Shown: positions 7,724-46,978, counted from the first letter of the stretch. The stretch: 46,979 nt of DNA from a candidate division WOR-3 bacterium (GCA_965649055.1 CBFGJG010000005.1:25726-72704), one strand, 5' to 3'. A program made the numbers and translations. The notes: generated by a model not told the origin, from the letters alone.

Positions 7724-8548
7724 ATCCCTGTAAATAACCCTTACATCTTCATATATTCTCGACAGATAATCATATATATAATCTGATACTACAACCGATC
7801 TATGCTTTCCTCCTGTGCATCCAAAACCTATTGTAAGATATACTTTTCCTTCCTTCTTGTATTGCTCGATTAAAAATATAAGAAGCTCTTTCAGAATGGA
7901 TAAAAATTTCCTTGTCCTTTTATTTTTTAATACAAAGTCTCTAACTTTCTTGTCCCTTCCTGTTAACAATCTCATCTCATCGATAAAGTATGGATTAGGA
8001 AGGAATCTAACATCAAAAACAAGGTCACAGTTCTCCGGAATTCCATATTTAAAGCCAAATGACACTATATTAATATAGAATACCCTGCCTTTCCCGTATA
8101 ACTTTGTAATCAGTTCTCTTAACTCATGCACTGAAAGATGAGAGGTGTTTATTACCTTTGTGGATAATGGGAATATCTTTGAAAGTCTTTCCCTTTCTTC
8201 TTTCAATCCCGAATCAAGGTCTCCAAGTGGATGTTTTCTTCTTGTTTCCTGAAATCTTTTCTTTAATGTTTCATCACTGGCATCAAGGAAAAGTATCTCT
8301 GTTTTTAGATTTTTTTTCTTCAGGTTTTCTTTAACCTTATTAAACTCTTCAAGTAATATACCCTCTCTTATATCGATAACAATAGCTATGTTATTAACCT
8401 TAAGATTTTTTTCTATAATAATATCTACAAACTCGGGAATTAAAGGTAAAGGGATATTGTCAGCACAGTAAAATCCTATATCTTCAAGAGAACGTAGAAC
8501 AGTTGTCTTACCGGCACCTGAAAGACCTGTTACAAATACAATCCTCAT
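7709..8548 (-). CDS. rapZ: RNase adapter RapZ (YhbJ/YvcJ) P-loop protein
   Basis: TGLSGAGKT, DNIP, ETRRKHPL, SFGFKYG, DVRFLPNPY, GCTGGKHRSV. Confidence 0.95.
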   Translation of the reverse strand: MRIVFVTGLSGAGKTTVLRSLEDIGFYCADNIPLPLIPEFVDIIIEKNLKVNNIAIVIDIREGILLEEFNKVKENLKKKNLKTEILFLDASDETLKKRFQETRRKHPLGDLDSGLKEERERLSKIFPLSTKVINTSHLSVHELRELITKLYGKGRVFYINIVSFGFKYGIPENCDLVFDVRFLPNPYFIDEMRLLTGRDKKVRDFVLKNKRTRKFLSILKELLIFLIEQYKKEGKVYLTIGFGCTGGKHRSVVVSDYIYDYLSRIYEDVRVIYRDLGRE

Positions 8549-9531
8549 TCCTCATCCTCTTCAAGCATTGCTATTTTTTTCCCTTGTTTTTTCATAAGTT
8601 TAAGAAGTTCTTCATTAAAAAGTCTCGGTGCATCATAACCCATTATCCTTGATATATGATTTAATGCTACAAGCTCAGAAATAGTCCCAACATTTTTACC
8701 CGGAATTAATGGTATCTGCACATAAGGCAGGTTAACACCAAGAACATTTTTCTCCTTCTCTTCAAGACCTGTTCTTGTCCAATCCTCATTCTCTTTCCAT
8801 GCAACAAGGTCAACTATTACTTCCACTCTTTTATGCATCCTGATTGATTTTATGCCAAAAAGAAGCGGTATATTAACTATTCCAATACCCCTTATTTCCA
8901 TATGATATTTTGACATTTCAGAAGGTTCTATCCCTTCCCCGATAATTATATTTCCTCTTTTTTTTAATTTTACAACATCATCTGCAATCAATCTATGTCC
9001 TCTTGCTATCAAATCAAGGGCAGTTTCACTCTTACCAATTCCACTCTCACCTGTAAGGAGCAATCCAATTCCATATACATCAACAAGTGTTCCATTGACA
9101 ATAGTATATTGGGCGAGTTTGTCATAAAGGTATGCATCAATTACCTTTTGAAATTCAATCATACTTAGTTCAGATACAAATAATGGGATCTCTTTCTCAT
9201 TACAATTCTTTTTAATTTCATCATTTGGTTTTTCGTTGTCAGTTACTATTATACAGGGAAATGAAAGTGTGAATAGATTTGAAACAGCCCTGTTTCTATC
9301 ATCATCACTCAATTTATTAAGATATAAAATCTCTCTTTTACCCAAAAGCTGAATAGAACCTTCCGGAAATTCTTCCCTGAATCCTATGAACACAAGAGAA
9401 GGGATATTCACATATGGAATACTTATATTATTTTTTAGACCATTAAAACCACCGACTATTTTTAACCTGAATATTTCTTCATTGTCTTCAAAAAATTTCT
9501 GGACTGATATAATATCTTTATTATCTACCAC
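8545..9531 (-). CDS. hprK: HPr kinase/phosphorylase
   Basis: GESGIGKSETALDL..RGHRLIADD, MEIRGIG. Confidence 0.95.
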   Translation of the reverse strand: MVDNKDIISVQKFFEDNEEIFRLKIVGGFNGLKNNISIPYVNIPSLVFIGFREEFPEGSIQLLGKREILYLNKLSDDDRNRAVSNLFTLSFPCIIVTDNEKPNDEIKKNCNEKEIPLFVSELSMIEFQKVIDAYLYDKLAQYTIVNGTLVDVYGIGLLLTGESGIGKSETALDLIARGHRLIADDVVKLKKRGNIIIGEGIEPSEMSKYHMEIRGIGIVNIPLLFGIKSIRMHKRVEVIVDLVAWKENEDWTRTGLEEKEKNVLGVNLPYVQIPLIPGKNVGTISELVALNHISRIMGYDAPRLFNEELLKLMKKQGKKIAMLEEDEE

Positions 9532-38094: not shown

Positions 38095-38936
38095 ACGCAA
38101 TTGGCTTTGCAGAAATTTCAGGACTAAGATTAAAAAAAAGGGGTAAAGTAAGGGATATATTTGAAATTGATGAACAGAGACTCCTTATTGTTTCAACAGA
38201 CAGGATTTCAGTATTTGATAATGTTTTGAAATCTTTAATTCCCGGTAAAGGGATTTATCTAAATGCTTTATCAACATATTGGTTCAAAACAATACAGGCC
38301 CAGAATCACTATATTACAAATGATGTGAGTGAATTAACAAAGGATGAAGAAATAACTAAAAGAAGTATGATTGTAAAGTATGCAAATCCATTACCTGTTG
38401 AATGTATTGTCCGTGGTTATCTTGCAGGTTCGTCTTTAAAAAGTTATAAAGAGACTGGGAAGGTAAACGATGTTATACTACCTGTTGGTCTAAGCGATTT
38501 CTCGAAACTCCCTGAACCAATATTCACCCCTACAACAAAGGAAGAAGGGACACACGACAGGCCAATCAGTTTCTTAGAATTTAAGAATCTTGTTGGAACA
38601 GAACTTGCACAGATCATAAAAGAACTTTCTATTATGATTTATGAAGAAGGTTCTGCAATAGCCGAAAAGAAAGGAATAATAATTGCTGATTCTAAATTTG
38701 AATTTGGTATAGATAATGATGGTAATCTAATCTTGATAGATGAACTTTTTACACCTGATTCATCAAGATTCTGGGATTTATCACTATGGGAGAATGGTGA
38801 AGTAGTTGACCTTGACAAAGAATTTGTAAGGGAATATGTTCGTTCAGCTGATTACACTGATATTTTACCTGATGAGGTTATAGAAAAGACAAGACAAAGA
38901 TATAGAAGAATATTTGAGATAATTGTTGGTGTATAA
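38091..38936 (+). CDS. purC: Phosphoribosylaminoimidazole-succinocarboxamide synthase
   Basis: [49 protein letters not shown]. Confidence 0.96.
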
Positions 38937-38940
38937 AAAA

Positions 38941-40977
38941 TCAGGCAGTATCAATTAATTCTCCTTTTTTGAATATCCTGTTTAACCATTCACATGTTTC
39001 TATTTCTTTTTTATCTGTTATAATTTTTTCTGCGATTCTTTTTGAAGGCTCAATTAGCTCTTTATCTTTAAATATATTGAATATAAGAAAATCTGAAAAT
39101 CCATGTTGCTTTGTTCCAAAAAATTCACCTGGTCCTCTTATCTTAAGGTCTATTTCTGAGAGTTCAAATCCATCCATTGTTTTTTCTATTGCTTCCAATC
39201 GTTTTTTCGCATCATCTGTTACATTTTCATCTGTGATAAGAATAAAATAAGATTTGCTTCCCTTTCTTCCTATTCTTCCCCTTAATTGATGAAGCTGTGA
39301 AAGACCAAACCTATCAGCATGCTCAACAACCATTATATTTGCATGAGGTATATCTACACCAACTTCAACAACTGTTGTTGAAATCAATGCCATAATCTTC
39401 CTTTCCTTGAAATCTTGCATAACCTTCTCTTTTTCTTCCGGGTTCATACTACCATAAATCATTCCAATATTCACATCTTTAAAGTATGAATTTTTTAACT
39501 CATCAAACATCTTTTTTACTGCTTTAAGTTTTATATTTTCACTCTCTTCAATCAATGGTAGGATTATGAATGCACCGTTTCCTTCTTTTATCTTCTCTTT
39601 TACAAAATTATATACCTTATCCCTCTTCTCTTCTTTAGTCCATTTTGTTAAAGTATTTCTTTTAAATGGGAGTTCATCAATAACAGAAATATCAAGGTCA
39701 CCATAAACAGATATTGCCAGTGTTCTTGGAATGGGTGTTGCGGTCAGAAAAAGGGCATGTGGCGCTTCGCCTTTCTCCATCAGTTTCTTCCTCTGCAATA
39801 CTCCAAACCTGTGATGTTCATCCATTATTACAAGACCTAATTTGGGGATAAAAATATCTTCCTGTATCAAAGAATGTGTCCCGACCAATATTGACGGCTT
39901 ATTAGTTATAACACTCATAATTTCCTGTTTTTCTTTCTTTTTAACTGAACCTGATAAGAAAAAAACATCTATTTCTTGCCCTTTTAACAATTCTTTGAAA
40001 ACGGTCCAGTGCTGGAAAGCCAAAATCTCTGTAGGTGCCATAATAGCAACATTGTATCCATTACCTATAACTATAAGGGATGCAACTAATCCAACAATCG
40101 TCTTACCAGAACCCACATCCCCTTGCAGTAATCTTTGCATAGGAGTTGGCTTTTTCAGGTCATTTTCTATCTCCTGTATAACTTTTATTTGGGATTTTGT
40201 AAGTTTATAAGGAAGTGATTTTAGGAATTTTTCCTTTATCTCAACTTCTACATTCATTTCTATCCCTTTCTTTTTCATATATCCTTTTCTCATAGAACCA
40301 AGGTAAAGCTGAATATGCAGGATTTCATCAAACGCAATTCTTTTAACAGATTTTCTAAGCAATTCCTGGTTTTCAGGAAAATGAATGTTCTTCAAGGCTT
40401 CCTTTAGATTCATATGATTTTTAAGGTAATCTTCCAGTGGATCTTCTATAAATTTGAGAAAATCATTCAAAGCTGAATATATAATTTTTCTCATTGTTTT
40501 CTGACTCATCAGGGAAGATAATCTGTAATATGGGACAATCCTTCCTGTATGTATTGCATCATAATCTTCTTCGTCAATTCTTTCATATTCAGGATTCAGA
40601 ATCTGTAAACCATTATAAAAAGATACAGGGCCACTTATAGAGATAACATCGCCTGTATTAAAATATTTTGTTACCCAATCCTGATTGAACCATTTTAATG
40701 TTATAAATCCGGTCCCATCTGAGAGCAAAACATTACCTATCTTTTTTCTTCCCTTACTTATATAAACATCTTTTACTCTTCCTATCAAAGTTACATATTC
40801 ACCAATCCTAATTTCTTCTATCTTTTTTATTGAACTCCTGTCGATATACTTATATGGTAGATAATATAGTAATTCAAGAATATTGTTAATACCTAATTTA
40901 TTTAGTGTCCTGGAAAGATTAAGCCCCACCCCTTCAATCTTCATCAAAGAGGCAGGGCTTATGATTTCGTTGAGCAA
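38941..40977 (-). CDS. recG: ATP-dependent DNA helicase RecG
   Basis: OB wedge domain, LLQGDVGSGKT, MAPTEILA.QH, DEHHRFGV.QR, TATPIPRTL, QLHQLRGRIGR, DL.IRGPGE. Confidence 0.96.
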   Translation of the reverse strand: MLNEIISPASLMKIEGVGLNLSRTLNKLGINNILELLYYLPYKYIDRSSIKKIEEIRIGEYVTLIGRVKDVYISKGRKKIGNVLLSDGTGFITLKWFNQDWVTKYFNTGDVISISGPVSFYNGLQILNPEYERIDEEDYDAIHTGRIVPYYRLSSLMSQKTMRKIIYSALNDFLKFIEDPLEDYLKNHMNLKEALKNIHFPENQELLRKSVKRIAFDEILHIQLYLGSMRKGYMKKKGIEMNVEVEIKEKFLKSLPYKLTKSQIKVIQEIENDLKKPTPMQRLLQGDVGSGKTIVGLVASLIVIGNGYNVAIMAPTEILAFQHWTVFKELLKGQEIDVFFLSGSVKKKEKQEIMSVITNKPSILVGTHSLIQEDIFIPKLGLVIMDEHHRFGVLQRKKLMEKGEAPHALFLTATPIPRTLAISVYGDLDISVIDELPFKRNTLTKWTKEEKRDKVYNFVKEKIKEGNGAFIILPLIEESENIKLKAVKKMFDELKNSYFKDVNIGMIYGSMNPEEKEKVMQDFKERKIMALISTTVVEVGVDIPHANIMVVEHADRFGLSQLHQLRGRIGRKGSKSYFILITDENVTDDAKKRLEAIEKTMDGFELSEIDLKIRGPGEFFGTKQHGFSDFLIFNIFKDKELIEPSKRIAEKIITDKKEIETCEWLNRIFKKGELIDTA

Positions 40978-40981
40978 TTTT

Positions 40982-41596
40982 TTACTTATTTATTCTCCAG
41001 CGGAATGGCATAGAGACCCATACATCTACAGGAATATCTCTCTGCATCGCTGGTGTAAACTTCAAGTTTTTATAAGCTTCTATTGCTATTGAATCAAGTG
41101 GTGGATAAAGGCTTTTTACAAGGATTACTTTCCTAACATCACCTTTTTTATCAACCCACATCTTAAGCCATACATCACCTTCAATCCTTAATTTTAATGC
41201 AATTTCCGGATAAGTAACACTTCTTTGAATCTGTTCAAGATTTATGGGTTGTGGTGCTTTATCGTAGGCAACAAAATCAGGTGGTGGTAGGTCAACCTCT
41301 GTCTCTTTTTCAAATCCTGTAAAATCTGTTTTTTCAATTGTCTGTTCCTGAACCTCTTCATCAGTCTGTGCGGCAACAGGAAGTTTCGGTTTCGGTGGCG
41401 GTGGTGGTTCTGCAATGTTTTTAAGTTGTGGTGGAAGTTTCTCCACCTTAACATCTATCTTAAAATCACTTTCATAGGGTTTTACTTCTGTCTTGGGTAT
41501 TATCACAAATGCTATTATCCATCCTACAAGAACAATAAGTAGTGCTATTCTAAGATGTATGGGATAATCTTCTTTCAAATCAACTTTTTTCTCCAT
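40982..41596 (-). CDS. tonB: Energy transducer TonB
   Basis: Single N-terminal TM, Pro-rich linker (PPPPPKPKLP), TonB_C domain (YPEIA....IEG.V...VD..G.V...FTPAMQ...PV). Confidence 0.9.
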   Translation of the reverse strand: MEKKVDLKEDYPIHLRIALLIVLVGWIIAFVIIPKTEVKPYESDFKIDVKVEKLPPQLKNIAEPPPPPKPKLPVAAQTDEEVQEQTIEKTDFTGFEKETEVDLPPPDFVAYDKAPQPINLEQIQRSVTYPEIALKLRIEGDVWLKMWVDKKGDVRKVILVKSLYPPLDSIAIEAYKNLKFTPAMQRDIPVDVWVSMPFRWRINK

Positions 41597-41598
41597 AA

Positions 41599-42006
41599 CT
41601 ACCCCCTTTTCTTTAACGTTGCAAGGGAGATTTTTAATAGTCCTGCTTCAACAAGCTGATTAAAAACCTTCTCAACATCTGTATATTTAGTGCTTTTATC
41701 ACATTGAATGGAAATAATGATATCCGGATTTATCTGTTTTTTCTTCATCATAATCTGTGAAATTTTTGGTAATGGTATTAGGACATCATCTATTGAAACA
41801 ATACCTTCCTCACTTATCCATATACGAGAAAGGTTTTTTGTTGGTATCTTCTTTGCAGCTTCAGCCTCTGGCAGAATTATTTTTAAGCCTGTATCCTGTC
41901 TGAAGGTTGTCGTTACCATAAAGAAGATTATTAAAAGGAACGCTATATCAGCTGTTGATGCAGTTGGTATGGTAGCCTTTTCTTCTTCTCTGAATTTTAT
42001 CTTCAT
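41599..42006 (-). CDS. exbD: ExbD/TolR family protein (second copy)
   Basis: STADIAFLLIIFFMVTT with the essential Asp; periplasmic domain ..CDK..KY. Confidence 0.92.
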   Translation of the reverse strand: MKIKFREEEKATIPTASTADIAFLLIIFFMVTTTFRQDTGLKIILPEAEAAKKIPTKNLSRIWISEEGIVSIDDVLIPLPKISQIMMKKKQINPDIIISIQCDKSTKYTDVEKVFNQLVEAGLLKISLATLKKRG

Positions 42007-42015
42007 AGTTCACCT

Positions 42016-42417
42016 CTATTCATTTGGGACAAGGCTTATTCTTTCAGCATTGGCAAGCCTCAATTTATCGAAGACATCTATCATAAATTCATATTTCGCA
42101 TCAGGTTCTGTTTTAAGGGAAAATATTATCTCAGGATTTTGTCTCAATAAGCTCTTCGCAATACTTGTAACATCACTTAAAGCAACAGGTTCACCATTTA
42201 TCCTGACATTTCCATCTTTCGTAACAAGAACCTTCGCAATGTTTTCGGATTTCACCTTGACCTGTTCTCCTTTTTCTGGAAGAATAATCTGTAGCCCCAT
42301 CTCATTTGAAAAAACAGTGGAAACCATAAAGAAGATTATAAGAAGAAAGGCAATATCTCCCATTGAGGCAGTTGGTATCTCTGCTGATTGCACAATCTTC
42401 TTATGAATTGGTTTCAT
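42016..42417 (-). CDS. exbD: ExbD/TolR family protein (first copy)
   Basis: SMGDIAFLLIIFFMVST with the essential Asp. Confidence 0.92.
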   Translation of the reverse strand: MKPIHKKIVQSAEIPTASMGDIAFLLIIFFMVSTVFSNEMGLQIILPEKGEQVKVKSENIAKVLVTKDGNVRINGEPVALSDVTSIAKSLLRQNPEIIFSLKTEPDAKYEFMIDVFDKLRLANAERISLVPNE

Positions 42418-43035
42418 TTATTCCTCCATTATCTTTTCAATGATCAAGGACGATGCTTCCTCCATTGACCTTGCATATGCATTCACCCTTGAAGAGAAAT
42501 AAGTATGGAATAATGCATTTGGAATTGCAACAATGAGACCAAACTCTGTTGTGATTAGAGCTTCTGATATACCTGCTGCAACTAATGTTGGTTCTACAGT
42601 TCCGGCAAGTGCTATTGCATTGAATGCCCTGATCATACCTGCAACGGTTCCAAGGAAGCCTAACATCGGTGCAAGGGTTGTAGCAGCAGAGATAAATGGT
42701 AAACCTCTATCAAGGAATGCAAGTTCTTCAGTTGCAACTGTCGTAAGCTCTTCTTCAAGAACTGCTTTATCTTTTATTTTCTTTGATTTTTCAAGGACTG
42801 CTTCAAGTATCCTTGCTATTGGTGTCCTTTGTGATTTGCAATATTTTATTGCAGAATCAACACCACCCTTCTTCATCCTTGATACAACCTGTTCAGTAAA
42901 CTTCTTTGGGTCTGCACCTGCCCTTGTAAATGTTATTATTCTCTCAATAATAAAGGTTAGACCAAGAAGTGCCATAAATAAAATTCCATGCATAACGGGA
43001 CCGCCGTTCATATACCATTCAATCAAACCACTCAT
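42418..43035 (-). CDS. exbB: MotA/TolQ/ExbB proton channel protein
   Basis: GGPVM, APMLGFLGTV.GMI.AF, GISEALITT..GL.VAIP; AGGAGG SD at 43040-43045. Confidence 0.93.
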   Translation of the reverse strand: MSGLIEWYMNGGPVMHGILFMALLGLTFIIERIITFTRAGADPKKFTEQVVSRMKKGGVDSAIKYCKSQRTPIARILEAVLEKSKKIKDKAVLEEELTTVATEELAFLDRGLPFISAATTLAPMLGFLGTVAGMIRAFNAIALAGTVEPTLVAAGISEALITTEFGLIVAIPNALFHTYFSSRVNAYARSMEEASSLIIEKIMEE

Positions 43036-43068
43036 AATACCTCCTTTTAGATTTTTGTTTTATTTTTT

Positions 43069-43419
43069 CTAACGGCTTATCCATCTAAAATAAACTCCAC
43101 TTCCAACTAAAGAAATAAAACCTGCAGCAAGAATAATCCACGATTCCACAGATGTGAATTTAAGCATCTGTAGCAATAAAGGGAACAAATCCTCAGGGTC
43201 AACATGTGATAGCAGCCTACCAAAATATGTAATCCTATAAAAATGGATGAAAGTTCCAAAGAGAAGAACTATTCCAGAAAGAACAAACATAATCCAGATA
43301 CCTTTTTTCTCTATGAGAACAAGTAATCTCTTTATTATTATTGCATAAATGAAAAGTGAGATAGTAAGCAGGAACATACCTATTGCAAATAGAAATTCAA
43401 GCGGTAGATTTATCCTCAT
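43069..43419 (-). CDS. Hypothetical 3-TM membrane protein (paralog of the 43416-43793 gene)
   Basis: ATGA coupling to the upstream gene; GGAGG SD; three hydrophobic segments. Confidence 0.8.
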   Translation of the reverse strand: MRINLPLEFLFAIGMFLLTISLFIYAIIIKRLLVLIEKKGIWIMFVLSGIVLLFGTFIHFYRITYFGRLLSHVDPEDLFPLLLQMLKFTSVESWIILAAGFISLVGSGVYFRWISR

Positions 43420-43793
43420 TGAGAACCTCCTTTTTTCTTCGGGGAGATCACCCTTCTAAAATTTAGGGCACCTATGAATGAGAATACGCAGGAAATCAAG
43501 AATAGTCCATAACCAATAGTGGATTCAATTGCTCCCATCTTTAATTTACCGAGAATAACATTTGAATAGAACATAACAATAGCGAACACAAGAATTCCAG
43601 AAGGTGAAGCAATTATGAATTGCCAGCCTGTTTTTTTCCTTAGGACAACTTCATATCTTTTTGCAACAATACCAAAGATTAAGAAAGTGAGCCAAAGTAG
43701 AACAGCAGCAATAATCATAATATTACTACTTAAAAAACCTATACTTGTTATTTCTTTAGGGAAGGCACTCTTTGAAATAGTTTGGAAAAACAT
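43416..43793 (-). CDS. Hypothetical 3-TM membrane protein
   Basis: ATG directly after the upstream TAA, with GGAGG SD; three hydrophobic segments. Confidence 0.8.
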   Translation of the reverse strand: MFFQTISKSAFPKEITSIGFLSSNIMIIAAVLLWLTFLIFGIVAKRYEVVLRKKTGWQFIIASPSGILVFAIVMFYSNVILGKLKMGAIESTIGYGLFLISCVFSFIGALNFRRVISPKKKGGSQ

Positions 43794-44450
43794 TTATACC
43801 TCCTTTAATTGTTTTAAAATGTCATCTTTCATATTTCCCGCTTTAGTAGGTCCAACAATCATCTTGGCCGACTTTTCAAGTTCATTTACAAGTTCCATCA
43901 GCTTATCTTTATTCAGATTATCTTTATTTATATTTAAATCATTTAAAATATTATCAAATATTTCTGAAGCAAAATCTCCAAGTGTGTCAGTTGATATATC
44001 ACGAATTTTATCAAGAATATCCGGTGATAAAACAATCTTTTCTTCTTTGGTTTCGAGTTTTTCTTCTATCTTTTTTTCTTCTTTCTCTATCTTTTTGGGT
44101 TCTTCAATTTTAACTTCTGGTTTTTTCTTTGGGAATAATTCTTCAAATATCTCCTCTTCTTTTGTGTGATAAATCCTCAAAATATCTTCCTTATCTTTTT
44201 CATTAGGAAGAACAAAACCAAATATCTCTTTCCCTTTCAGAATTATCAAAATGTACTCATTTTCACCCTTTATTGTTATTTCCCTTATAGGAACTTCTTT
44301 AAGAGATTCAATTGCCTGGGTTAGAACTATTGAAATACTCTCAAGAATTTCATCCGAATTCTGTGCCTCACCAAACAAAAGTTTTTTTCTTCCCACATAA
44401 AAAACTATCCTTGAACCTGTTTCATTCATTAAATTTTCAATTGCGCTCAT
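43794..44450 (-). CDS. Hypothetical protein: roadblock/LC7-like N-domain, K/E-rich linker, helical C-domain
   Basis: The first ~95 aa show the helix-b-b-helix-b-b-b-helix pattern (IREITIKGENEYILIILKGKEIFGFVL). ATGA coupling. Fold call is by eye. Confidence 0.65.
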   Translation of the reverse strand: MSAIENLMNETGSRIVFYVGRKKLLFGEAQNSDEILESISIVLTQAIESLKEVPIREITIKGENEYILIILKGKEIFGFVLPNEKDKEDILRIYHTKEEEIFEELFPKKKPEVKIEEPKKIEKEEKKIEEKLETKEEKIVLSPDILDKIRDISTDTLGDFASEIFDNILNDLNINKDNLNKDKLMELVNELEKSAKMIVGPTKAGNMKDDILKQLKEV

Positions 44451-45115
44451 TTTTTCTCTTTGCTTAATTTTTCAATTACATTATGAACCCTGTTTTTTGC
44501 CTCGTCATTCCCGAATTCTTTGATCGCTTCTTTCACAAGAAAATCGAGGAGCATCTTCATAAATTTATCAACGATTTCTTTATCGAGGTCTTTTGCGCCT
44601 TTTACTACGAGTTCCATTCCTTCTACTTTAAGAAGTTTTTCAAACCTCTTTTCCTGGTCAAGCATCTCTATCGCTTTCGAGAGCAAATTCTTCCATTTTT
44701 CAGGGTCTGAACCTATTGAAAACTCCTCAATCAGAAGTGTGAGTTGCCTTGCCTTTGTATTTAGAACCTTAAGGACCTTTGGGTCACCTGTAAGGTCTTC
44801 TTCTTTTATTATTTCTATTATCTTATTAATCGTGGTTTCATTGAATTCGTCCACCATTACCCCGAGAAAATTTTCATCTGGTTTAAGTATTATATATTTA
44901 TCTCTTCCCTCAACCTGGATAGAAAGAACATTCTGGATATTAAATTTTCTTGCGATTATCTCGCTTGCTGAACCGATGTATGCTATGAGTTCATCCATAT
45001 AACCAGGTGTTATACCTCCATTTGATATAATGGAACCATCATTTGAATTCACATATGTATAACCTGAAATATTTTCAATTGCAAGTAAACCTTTTAATTT
45101 CTCACTTTGTATCAT
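44447..45115 (-). CDS. Roadblock/LC7 (MglB-like) domain protein with a C-terminal helical domain
   Basis: LKGLLAIENISGYTYVNSNDGSII...IAYIGSASEIIA...VLSIQVEG...FLGVMV resembles a roadblock domain; 14-bp overlap with the upstream gene. Confidence 0.7.
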   Translation of the reverse strand: MIQSEKLKGLLAIENISGYTYVNSNDGSIISNGGITPGYMDELIAYIGSASEIIARKFNIQNVLSIQVEGRDKYIILKPDENFLGVMVDEFNETTINKIIEIIKEEDLTGDPKVLKVLNTKARQLTLLIEEFSIGSDPEKWKNLLSKAIEMLDQEKRFEKLLKVEGMELVVKGAKDLDKEIVDKFMKMLLDFLVKEAIKEFGNDEAKNRVHNVIEKLSKEKK

Positions 45116-45929
45116 CTATCATCTTCCATTTTTTGTTCACAATTATTTTACCAAGAATCTCTTCTGCCTTTTTCTTAAGATTATTGAGTATTTCTTCAAA
45201 CCAAGCCTCAAGTTTATCTGTTCCCACAGGTATATCTTGTTTCAAGATTACAATTTTATTATCTTTAACCTCTGCAAAACCTTCAAAATTTTCTTTCTTT
45301 AAGCTCTCATCAATGATTTCCTTCCAGATCTTTTCTCCTGAATAAAGTTCAAAGAATTTATTGATTTTCCCGGTCCATTTCTTAATGATTCTTTCCCTTG
45401 CCTTGGGATCAAAAATCAAACCCTCATCAAATAAATATTTCAAAGCACGCATTGTTGTTCCTTTTTCGAGCCCACTTGATTCTATTATTTCATAAAGATT
45501 TTTCTTCCCATCAACGGTAATAAATATTTTCCAGTGTATTTTATTCATTTCAATCTTTGATTTCCCTTCGGTCTTTGAAGACTTTAAAGGGACAGTTTCA
45601 AGTGGTGGTAAATTTTTCTTAACTTCTTCTATCTCTGTTCTTCTTCTTTCTATCTCTTCAAAAAGGTTTGAAAGCTGTTCATTTATTGTAATAAGATCCG
45701 GTTTTTCATCTATAATAAATTTAAAAACACCATGTTCTTTCAAGACAATATTAAAAAGAGCCTCCTGTCCACTCAATTCGTTATCTTGTGCATGAACTAT
45801 ATTTCCATCCTGAAAGAATATAGAAGAATTAGATATTGTAAGTTTACCACTTTTCTTAAACCTTGATAAGAAATACAAAATCTCATCAATTTTAAAATAT
45901 TTTAATTCACCAGTAAGTGCTTCAGGCAT
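45102..45929 (-). CDS. DUF4388 (PatA-N-like) domain protein with winged-HTH and C-terminal helical domain
   Basis: LTGELKYFKIDEIL.FL...KKSG.L.I....IFF.DG.IVHA.....G.EAL......G.F.F; then WKIF..VDG.KNL.EI....GL......AL..L...GLI. Confidence 0.85.
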   Translation of the reverse strand: MPEALTGELKYFKIDEILYFLSRFKKSGKLTISNSSIFFQDGNIVHAQDNELSGQEALFNIVLKEHGVFKFIIDEKPDLITINEQLSNLFEEIERRRTEIEEVKKNLPPLETVPLKSSKTEGKSKIEMNKIHWKIFITVDGKKNLYEIIESSGLEKGTTMRALKYLFDEGLIFDPKARERIIKKWTGKINKFFELYSGEKIWKEIIDESLKKENFEGFAEVKDNKIVILKQDIPVGTDKLEAWFEEILNNLKKKAEEILGKIIVNKKWKMIDDTK

Positions 45930-45938
45930 ATTAAGATT

Positions 45939-45966
45939 ATTTTATAGAAAAGTGTAAAGTTGTCAA
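45939..45966 (-). promoter_or_regulatory. Putative sigma70 promoter of the DUF4388...tonB-recG operon
   Basis: Minus strand TTGACA-16 bp-TAAAAT, 9 nt before ATG 45929; no SD. Confidence 0.65.
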
Positions 45967-45973
45967 GTTAAAT

Positions 45974-46978
45974 TTAAATTTTTAATCTTAAAATTTCTTT
46001 TATTATTTTCTTTATATTTTCTATGTATAACTCTGCTCTGTAATTCTTCAAAAATGCATTTTTTTCTTCATATCCTATTTTTAATCTCTTTTTTTTATCA
46101 TTTGAAAGAATCCCTATCCATTCAACAACTTTCTCGATCTCTCCAAAATTCACAATAATACCTGTCCCTTTTAATACTTCTCGAATCGCACCAATATCAT
46201 GTGTAACAATCGGAACTCCAAGCCCCATTGCCTCCATCAAGACCCTCCCAAATGGTTCTGGTTTAACGGGTAAATGGACTATAATATCCATTGAAGAAAT
46301 GTAATTGAGGTTATCTTTTTTAAAACCAAGAAATGAAACTTTTTCTTCAAGTTTATTATCTTTTATATATTCTTTCAGCATTTTTAGATATTCTTCTTCA
46401 CCAAAAAGGACATCACCAATAATATATCCCTTCGCATTTTTAACTTCTTTCATCACTTTAAGGAAATTCATCTGTCCTTTCCATTCCGCAATCTGTCCGA
46501 TATAACCTATTTTTGTTTTTCCCCCTTTTATTTTTTTTGTTAAATTATCTGGAATACTCAAACCATTATAAACAATAGAAATTTTTCTCTTTATAAAAAA
46601 CTGTTTTTTTACTTCATTTGAAATTGCAATTATTTTATCAGGAAAAACACTGAAAAGATTTACCAAAAATCTATTTTTCCCTTCAAGTATATCTCTAAAA
46701 TGCCATACCAGCCTGAGATTAAAAAAAATTTTTAAGAAGATACTTAAAATATGTGCTTTCTGGCTGTTTGTCCATAAGATATCCGGTTTTTCCTTTGAAA
46801 TTATTCCTTTTAATTCTCTTATTGCGCAAATTAATTCCCTAAGATAAAAAATAATATTTAGAATTTTATCTCTTTTTATTTTGAAAAAAGAATATTCATT
46901 TATAGAAAATACATTTATACCTTCTTTCTTTATTTCATCTTTAAGCTGTCCCTCTCCCGGAAGGATAACAGAAATTTT
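45974..46978 (-). CDS. Glycosyltransferase family 4 (GT-B), 5'-truncated by window edge
   Basis: The frame stays open upstream of the listed ORF (KPDILWTNSQKAH...VWHFRD); YNG, GQIAEWKGQ, PEPFGRVLMEAM..GVP. Confidence 0.9.
   Translation of the reverse strand, partial: KISVILPGEGQLKDEIKKEGINVFSINEYSFFKIKRDKILNIIFYLRELICAIRELKGIISKEKPDILWTNSQKAHILSIFLKIFFNLRLVWHFRDILEGKNRFLVNLFSVFPDKIIAISNEVKKQFFIKRKISIVYNGLSIPDNLTKKIKGGKTKIGYIGQIAEWKGQMNFLKVMKEVKNAKGYIIGDVLFGEEEYLKMLKEYIKDNKLEEKVSFLGFKKDNLNYISSMDIIVHLPVKPEPFGRVLMEAMGLGVPIVTHDIGAIREVLKGTGIIVNFGEIEKVVEWIGILSNDKKKRLKIGYEEKNAFLKNYRAELYIENIKKIIKEILRLKI

Follow-up and report, generated by a model that had tools for sequence, protein, structure and literature searches.

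Why does an ExbB-ExbD-ExbD-TonB motor share a predicted operon with genes for a DUF4388 protein, two Roadblock-like proteins and a pair of small membrane proteins? Descriptions of Ton systems, to our knowledge, usually name three inner-membrane proteins and no cytoplasmic partners. The question is raised by a stretch of 46,979 nucleotides from a candidate division WOR-3 bacterium (GCA_965649055.1 CBFGJG010000005.1:25726-72704), hereafter the window, which lies on contig C5 of that genome. Here five genes that we call g1 to g5, and together the cassette, run directly into exbB-exbD-exbD-tonB. Comparison of gene neighbourhoods across related genomes supports a functional link between cassette and Ton system that is modular in its construction. 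Our tentative answer, to which we give somewhat less than an even chance, is that the Ton motor and an Oar-type receptor are coupled through g1-g5 to the MglA/MglB-PATAN polarity network of the cell.

We characterised the five cassette proteins using profile searches, AlphaFold models and alignments of 25-27 orthologues per gene. Residues 6-99 of g1 match DUF4388, the PATAN domain (PF14332; E 8.6e-11, 42.4 bits against a Pfam cut-off of 25), and a genome-wide search with PF14332 recovers the g1 locus too. There is no family match in Pfam or NCBIfam for g2, g3, g4 or g5, and no hydrophobic segment is predicted in g1, g2 or g3. The models of g2 (pLDDT 88.8) and g3 (pLDDT 84.7) each contain an N-terminal Roadblock/LC7 domain with the alpha-beta-beta-alpha-beta-beta-beta(-alpha) topology of that fold. 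The top Foldseek match of the g2 model is an Asgard Roadblock protein (7yh1_A, E 2.2e-5), the p14/MP1 and LAMTOR scaffold proteins are among its best structural matches, and VIA-align places it on Roadblock with a Z of 13.7 and a root-mean-square deviation of 2.3 over 104 aligned residues. For g3 the top match is Myxococcus xanthus MglB (6hjm_B, E 1.7e-5), with Thermus thermophilus MglB also among the best. The initial annotation of this DNA, made from the sequence alone, had called both proteins roadblock-like, and the structural comparisons bear this out for their N-terminal domains.

In both g2 and g3 the Roadblock domain leads through a charged linker, whose length varies, into a helical C-terminal domain; in g3 the linker (residues 116-137) is disordered and the C-terminal domain is acidic. 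The two proteins are remote full-length paralogues (hhalign of the alignments: probability 94.3%, E 1e-7), and residues 176-274 of g1 are homologous to residues 112-217 of g2 (hhalign probability 96%, E 5e-9). Since g1 matches g2 and g2 matches g3, all three have one C-terminal domain in common. The VIA-align results on the g2 model reach residues 1-106 only and barely cover this domain, and an ESM Atlas feature search for its family returned a best score of 0.78, where 0.9 is the level of a lead. In one relative (G016; L078:7980-8809, which is the same as L091) the g2 orthologue lies in two open reading frames (ORFs; 7980-8324 and 8363-8809), through either a frameshift or stop in the gene or an error of assembly.

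The hydrophobic segments of g4 span residues 25-43, 59-77 and 92-110 and those of g5 residues 11-29, 40-58 and 93-111. The two proteins are paralogues, as indicated by hhalign (probability 80%, E 1.3e-5, 88 columns) and by BLASTP (E 2e-4). A basic loop of g4, KRYExVLRKKTxWQF, is nearly invariant in the alignment, and the invariant residues of g5 (E8, H59, P75 and E92) would all lie on the periplasmic side in the predicted topology. Distant g4 relatives (P0113, P0115, P0123, P0128 and similar proteins) are 310-400 residues long; in them the module of three transmembrane segments comes after a signal peptide and a fused Lamin Tail Domain (PF00932, with E values as low as 1e-12). Because of these Lamin Tail Domain fusions and the positive-inside rule, we place the N-terminus of g4 outside the cytoplasm, an orientation in which its basic loop and C-terminal tail would be cytoplasmic. 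The g4 family is rare: 55 representatives reach E<=1e-3, and 40 reach E<=1e-10, among 1.84 billion. The idea that g4 and g5 are reduced ExbB- or ExbD-like proteins was rejected on hhalign probabilities of 0.1-1.1%. A 260-residue protein, P0116, was considered as a possible g4-g5 fusion and was not used, the match being weak only (hhalign probability 12.5%, E 0.0023, 49 columns).

How well is the junction between cassette and motor conserved? A survey based on g2 found a homologue in 40 of 61 related genomes, and for 34 of the 39 matches in relatives a surrounding stretch of about 16 kb was compared (G003 and G020-G023, on short contigs, were left out). In 25 of these 34 loci g1-g5 are followed directly by exbB-exbD-exbD(-tonB). 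An insertion of ~4.7 kb separates g5 from exbB in four loci, which make up family f6; three loci end too early, G025 has g1-g3 only, and G035 has a reduced form in which a DUF4388 protein and an 87-residue ORF (no Pfam family above cut-off) precede the motor. The linkage persists down to ~25-30% identity in g2. A pattern built on the g4 alignment, run against 185,579 species genomes, yielded 43 loci, many of them on the same contigs as in the g2-based survey, from Ca. Stahlbacteria, candidate division TA06, 'Ca. Cloacimonadota', Ca. Edwardsbacteria and UBP2. In 38 of the 43 the order of g1-g5 is identical; of the other five, three reach a contig end upstream (L084, L105, L111) and in two the g1 and g2 frames overlap (L107, L113). 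A hidden Markov model (HMM) search located exbB within 185 bp of g5 in 28 of these loci and ~4.6 kb away, behind an NHL protein and a TonB-dependent receptor (TBDT), in four; it did not find exbB in seven loci (L107, L108, L111-L114 and L117) where 1.5 kb or more of room is available, and four are too short to judge. Within the phylum of the window, g4 is present in 107 of 272 genomes; for high-quality genomes the count is 69 of 181, and for genera 45 of 110. The linkage of the five-gene block to exbB-exbD-exbD-tonB, which the initial annotation had proposed from this one locus, is thus conserved across many related genomes; it is not absolute, parts lying separately in G025, G091, G096 and the UBP2-like genomes.

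The rearranged loci indicate which parts travel together. Family f6 reads g1-g3, g4-g5, receptor, motor, and its insertion encodes an NHL-repeat protein and a 1023-residue protein with CarboxypepD_reg and Plug domains, which is a TBDT. The UBP2-like loci read g1-g3, g4-g5, receptor, and lack the motor: next after g5 come a protein bearing a type IX secretion system (T9SS)-type tail, a 1022-residue TBDT (CarboxypepD_reg and Plug) and a 778-residue protein with no motor nearby, and these genomes carry ExbB homologues elsewhere. G091 and G096 read g4-g5-exbB-exbD-exbD-tonB-TBDT, the TBDT having 1068-1069 residues, with no g1-g3 upstream, and g1-g2-g3 stand together on another contig. Four modules can be recognised, C (g1-g3), M (g4-g5), T (motor) and R (receptor cluster), and the joints seen are C-M, M-T, C-M-R and T-R. 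What stays with the Ton system is the membrane pair, M.

The same loci bear on a simpler explanation, in which g1-g5 are a polarity or type IV pilus regulatory module that sits by inherited order beside a housekeeping Ton operon. The sub-modules do occur apart, in G025, G091, G096, G092 and the UBP2-like genomes, and other PATAN genes of this genome lie near prepilin-like genes (on C3) or near pilT-like, MglA and Che-like genes (on C4). A gap is also always present between g5 and exbB (33 bp here, 26-134 bp in relatives), whereas g1-g5 overlap or abut. Yet where the cassette or its membrane half has been rearranged it adjoins a receptor (UBP2-like, f6) or a motor (f24, f25), the linkage survives the divergence in g2 noted above, and the cassette stands beside pilus genes in none of the loci examined. 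We consider it improbable that the two are mere neighbours.

Relatives also suggest what kind of motor this is. ExbB, both ExbD copies and TonB_C, like the RecG domains downstream, all score above their Pfam cut-offs, and the four motor genes in a single predicted operon constitute a Ton system as such systems are defined; TonB has a single hydrophobic segment, residues 15-33. As the initial annotation had noted, there is no TBDT gene in the window: contig C5 has no Plug-domain match, and the four matches of the genome are on C20, C14, C7 and C59. The best homologue here of the receptors linked to the system in relatives is C14:4444-7062. Five relatives without the cassette retain orthologous exbB-exbD-exbD, followed in most of them by tonB and a ~1000-residue TBDT, and L117 has g1-g5, a TonB_C protein and a 929-residue TBDT. 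The receptors of f6, the UBP2-like loci and L117 are homologous to one another at ~29-33% identity. Because in relatives a ~1000-residue CarboxypepD_reg and Plug TBDT adjoins the motor or the cassette, the motor appears to be an ordinary Ton system paired with a receptor in the outer membrane and not evidently a motility machine. That no receptor gene accompanies it is peculiar to this window. Elsewhere the genome contains another Ton locus, on C26, with a single ExbD, and a separate TolQ/TolR locus on C6.

Proteins with T9SS tails and PorV-like proteins neighbour the TBDT in cassette-free relatives, and such neighbourhoods look like a substrate-capture and uptake locus. Receptor clusters joined to the motor or cassette in relatives (L138:161-1093, L137:9594-11363, L114:8952-10697 and L141:14556-16673) encode proteins with T9SS C-terminal sorting domains and a PorV-like outer-membrane protein (PF19572, E 1.3e-7), which hints that T9SS-anchored surface proteins feed an Oar-type TBDT. 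The initial annotation had preferred a role in envelope remodelling, secretion or motility to one in nutrient uptake; this preference is not supported, as relatives pair the motor or the cassette with a TBDT, T9SS-tailed proteins and PorV-like proteins. Export may apply as well, since Oar is needed for protease secretion.

Related to that assignment is the possibility of an Agl-Glt-like machine, proton-driven and acting at the surface in motility, secretion or envelope remodelling under spatial control by MglA, and not in nutrient uptake. According to the available text of two M. xanthus studies, the target of MglA and MglB is a TonB-C protein next to a TolQR-like motor (PMC11135422), and the TBDT Oar, which has the same CarboxypepD_reg and Plug architecture, is needed for secretion of the PopC protease (PMC6434023). 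The motor genes here, however, score as ExbB/TolQ, ExbD and TonB, their partner in relatives is a TBDT flanked by T9SS-tailed and PorV-like proteins in a layout typical of substrate capture or uptake, and the genome has its separate TolQR locus. No Glt-type genes were noticed in the inspected loci, although no search with Glt proteins was made. On balance a machine of this type is improbable.

The initial annotation had reported no small GTPase gene in the window, which is correct, and had suggested a search of the genome for an MglA-like protein; homologues are indeed present, on C23 and C4 only. On C23 an MglA of 193 residues (with matches to Arf, Gtr1 and Ras) adjoins a true Robl_LC7 MglB, and the second MglA, on C4, is a 57%-identical paralogue near a PATAN gene. 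Across the 272 genomes of the phylum, MglA at E<=1e-30 is found in 102 of 107 g4-positive genomes versus 65 of 165 g4-negative ones, a co-occurrence that is suggestive only. The g4-positive genomes without MglA are G023, G095, G156 and G182, which are 62-76% complete, and G092.

Other PATAN and Roadblock genes of this genome have neighbourhoods of their own. On C4 (L127:1416-10016) one strand carries a PilT-like ORF, the MglA paralogue (198 residues), a 576-residue ORF and a 532-residue PATAN protein with a split DUF4388 match, and ORFs resembling CheR, CheD and CheB lie on the same strand. On C3 (L126:7255-10763) a 209-residue PATAN protein, the closest relative of g1 in the genome (114 bits with the g1 HMM), is followed by ORFs with prepilin-like N-termini, which suggests that this PATAN protein is linked to type IV pili. 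A second PATAN/Roadblock cluster occupies one strand of C14 at ~17.1-30.3 kb (L122:2165-15272). It opens with a CheW-, CheY-, CheA- and CheC-like run (labels from the first residues only) and continues with a 874-residue TPR-like protein, a 324-residue DUF4388 protein, a protein with TPR and Robl_LC7 domains, two small Roadblock proteins, a 1048-residue TamB-domain protein and a 540-residue protein.

How might these parts work together? Roadblock dimers are platforms for small GTPases. In the scheme that we favour, g2 and g3 would form a Roadblock pair, presumably a heterodimer, and g1, g2 and g3 would make up one complex held by Roadblock dimerisation and by their common C-terminal domain. 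g4 and g5 would lie in the inner membrane beside ExbB-ExbD-TonB, and the cytoplasmic complex would dock on their short basic loops and tails. Such coupling could place or gate the motor, or could report motor activity to the polarity and motility apparatus. The gene order, the folds, the paralogies, the conserved modular linkage and the MglA co-occurrence are observed; each physical contact in this scheme, and the role given to MglA, we infer. Coupling to the polarity network seems the most likely job of the cassette because Roadblock dimers serve small GTPases and PATAN binds parts belonging to the type IV pilus motor. In the available text of the relevant studies, PATAN binds PilB and PilC and its genes are often neighboured by those of MglA/MglB (bioRxiv 10.1101/2021.06.11.447907), and in M. 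xanthus MglA-GTP and MglB bind GltJ, a TonB-C protein that works with a TolQR-like motor (PMC11135422). A fuller version, in which g4/g5 dock the PATAN-Roadblock complex on ExbB-ExbD-TonB and MglA positions or gates an Oar-type transporter, or transporter activity steers type IV pilus motility, is rather unlikely to be right in all its parts.

One contact of this scheme, between the membrane pair and a Roadblock protein, had been envisaged in the initial annotation and was modelled. A complex prediction of g4 and g5 with g3 as partner gave an ipSAE of 0.54, versus 0.00 for the best of three controls; 88% or more of the contacts recur between runs, and the partner has a pLDDT of 66 or higher. 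In calibration, 58 of 80 solved complexes and 2 of 110 mismatched pairs came up to the mark, and scores of 0.60 or below comprised 7 of the 80 solved complexes plus both of the mismatches that passed. The model thus lends weak support to binding of g3 by the g4/g5 pair.

Several observations weigh against coupling to the polarity network. The complex prediction covers g3 alone, and weakly. Neither g2 nor g3 has a match to Robl_LC7 (PF03259) at E<=1, and a genome-wide search with this family gives five matches, none of them on C5; because they fall below the Pfam Robl_LC7 model, g2 and g3 have diverged from true MglB. None of the loci examined has a GTPase gene within the cassette or next to it. 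The g4-positive genome G092, which is 93% complete, has g4 and g2 and no MglA at E<=1e-30, and the counts of MglA co-occurrence overstate the case since related genomes are not independent. g4 and g5 have no similarity to ExbB or ExbD by hhalign, and in G025 g1-g3 are on C2 with g4-g5 alone on C1.

Some of these points would suit a scaffold that works without a GTPase, in which the Roadblock pair and PATAN, held by g4/g5, assemble, stabilise or gate ExbB-ExbD-TonB independently of MglA. Roadblock folds are used as scaffolds in Ragulator/LAMTOR. The absence of a GTPase gene from the cassette and its surroundings, the resemblance of g2 to p14/MP1 and LAMTOR, and G092 all agree with such a role, and E. 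coli ExbB interacts with unknown proteins, according to the available text of a preprint (bioRxiv 10.1101/2024.07.10.602958). Yet nearly all g4-positive genomes have MglA, the best structural matches of g3 are MglB itself, and Ragulator-type scaffolds serve GTPases too. We regard a GTPase-free scaffold as unlikely and retain coupling to the MglA/MglB-PATAN network as the preferred reading.

No description of a g1-g5/Ton cassette was found in the literature, supplementary gene-neighbourhood tables being outside the search. What is known here is the Ton system; what is new is the cytoplasmic and membrane accessory, undescribed in the literature searched. The Ton part resembles Ton(Oar) of M. xanthus, in which the partner system of Oar is tonB1-exbB1-exbD1-exbD2 and for which polar secretion of PopC has been proposed in a model (PMC6434023, available text). 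Both have one ExbB, two ExbD and TonB, and the ~1000-residue TBDT adjacent in relatives has the N-terminal CarboxypepD_reg extension and Plug domain. They differ in that the available text mentions no PATAN, Roadblock or three-transmembrane accessory genes for Ton(Oar) (PMC6434023), and in that the receptor is unlinked in this window, its closest homologue being on C14.

The cytoplasmic part resembles the MglA/MglB switch with PATAN of Myxococcus and Thermus in the Roadblock fold, the match of g3 to MglB, the presence of PATAN in the same operon, and the true MglA-MglB pair elsewhere in this genome. It differs in that the operon is without a GTPase, MglA being on C23 and C4 and not adjacent; in that g2 and g3 fall below Robl_LC7 and have an extra C-terminal domain in common with the PATAN protein; and in that they are joined to membrane proteins and a Ton motor. 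With Agl-Glt/GltJ the likeness is by functional analogy: an MglA/MglB-type layer, a TonB-C protein and a proton-driven TolQR/ExbBD-like motor. GltJ, in the available text, has a long cytoplasmic ZnR-GYF region of its own (PMC11135422), whereas TonB here is almost without a cytoplasmic part, and g4/g5 with g1-g3 would supply the link. Finally, the FecA-FecR-FecI transducers are alike in concept, a Ton-dependent receptor being wired to the cytoplasm through dedicated inner-membrane proteins, but the cytoplasmic parts here are PATAN and Roadblock proteins. Pfam reports no STN domain on six associated receptors (it identifies CarboxypepD_reg, Plug and barrel families), and no anti-sigma or extracytoplasmic function sigma genes were noticed in the loci inspected.

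The arrangement of the locus is set out in Table 1. Gene coordinates and Pfam matches agree with the initial annotation in its nine tightly packed minus-strand genes, and its junctions are exact: from g1 onwards a 14-bp overlap, a 4-bp overlap, 0 bp, a 4-bp overlap, 33, 0, 9 and 2 bp, and 4 bp to recG. The promoter that it placed ahead of g1 is present, in a 44-bp gap behind an upstream glycosyltransferase-like ORF, and is the best sigma-70-like match within 38800-46200; it remains a predicted promoter, and the 32 promoter-like sites of that region versus 29.6 +/- 6.0 in shuffles are at chance level. The 33-bp gap between g5 and exbB contains AGGAGG ahead of the exbB ATG, as expected for the Shine-Dalgarno sequence reported there, and no hairpin was seen in it; no minus-strand terminator-like site was found within 38800-46200.

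Table 1. Genes and predicted promoter of the cassette-Ton operon, in coordinates of the window.
Feature	Coordinates	Strand	Basis
g1, PATAN (DUF4388), 275 residues	45102-45929	minus	PF14332
g2, Roadblock/LC7-fold N-domain (1-~105), linker, helical C-terminal domain, 222 residues	44447-45115	minus	model
g3, g2 paralogue, Roadblock fold, 218 residues	43794-44450	minus	model, hhalign
g4, 125-residue membrane protein, 3 hydrophobic segments	43416-43793	minus	segment prediction
g5, 116-residue g4 paralogue, 3 hydrophobic segments	43069-43419	minus	hhalign, BLASTP
ExbB (MotA/TolQ/ExbB proton-channel family)	42418-43035	minus	PF01618 E 5.2e-30
ExbD copy 1	42016-42417	minus	PF02472 E 2.3e-23
ExbD copy 2	41599-42006	minus	PF02472 E 3.5e-25
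TonB: N-terminal transmembrane segment, proline-rich stretch, TonB_C	40982-41596	minus	PF03544 E 6.8e-15
recG	38941-40977	minus	Pfam RecG_wedge, DEAD, Helicase_C
Promoter-like site TTGACA-16-TAAAAT	45939-45966	minus	sigma-70 consensus match, 11/12

No terminator-like site separates tonB from recG. Families f1 and f2 retain this joint, with ~25-80 bp between the genes and a longer gap in G002, and more distant families do not have it; as recG follows tonB only in the window's own order (f1, f2), it is probably a passenger of the operon. Plus-strand ORFs at 41708-42406, 42533-43072 and 43615-44169 (232, 179 and 184 residues), antisense to exbD, exbB and g3/g4, are most likely shadow frames and not genes, in DNA of 31-35% GC.

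For Ton systems in general, a conserved and genetically linked cytoplasmic module with its own membrane anchors would be a concrete candidate for how the motor is regulated or placed from within the cell. If coupling to the polarity network is correct, a TonB system would for the first time be described with a cytoplasmic regulatory layer, and the reach of MglA, Roadblock and PATAN proteins would extend from pili and gliding to outer-membrane transport, in the several uncultured bacterial lineages that host the cassette.

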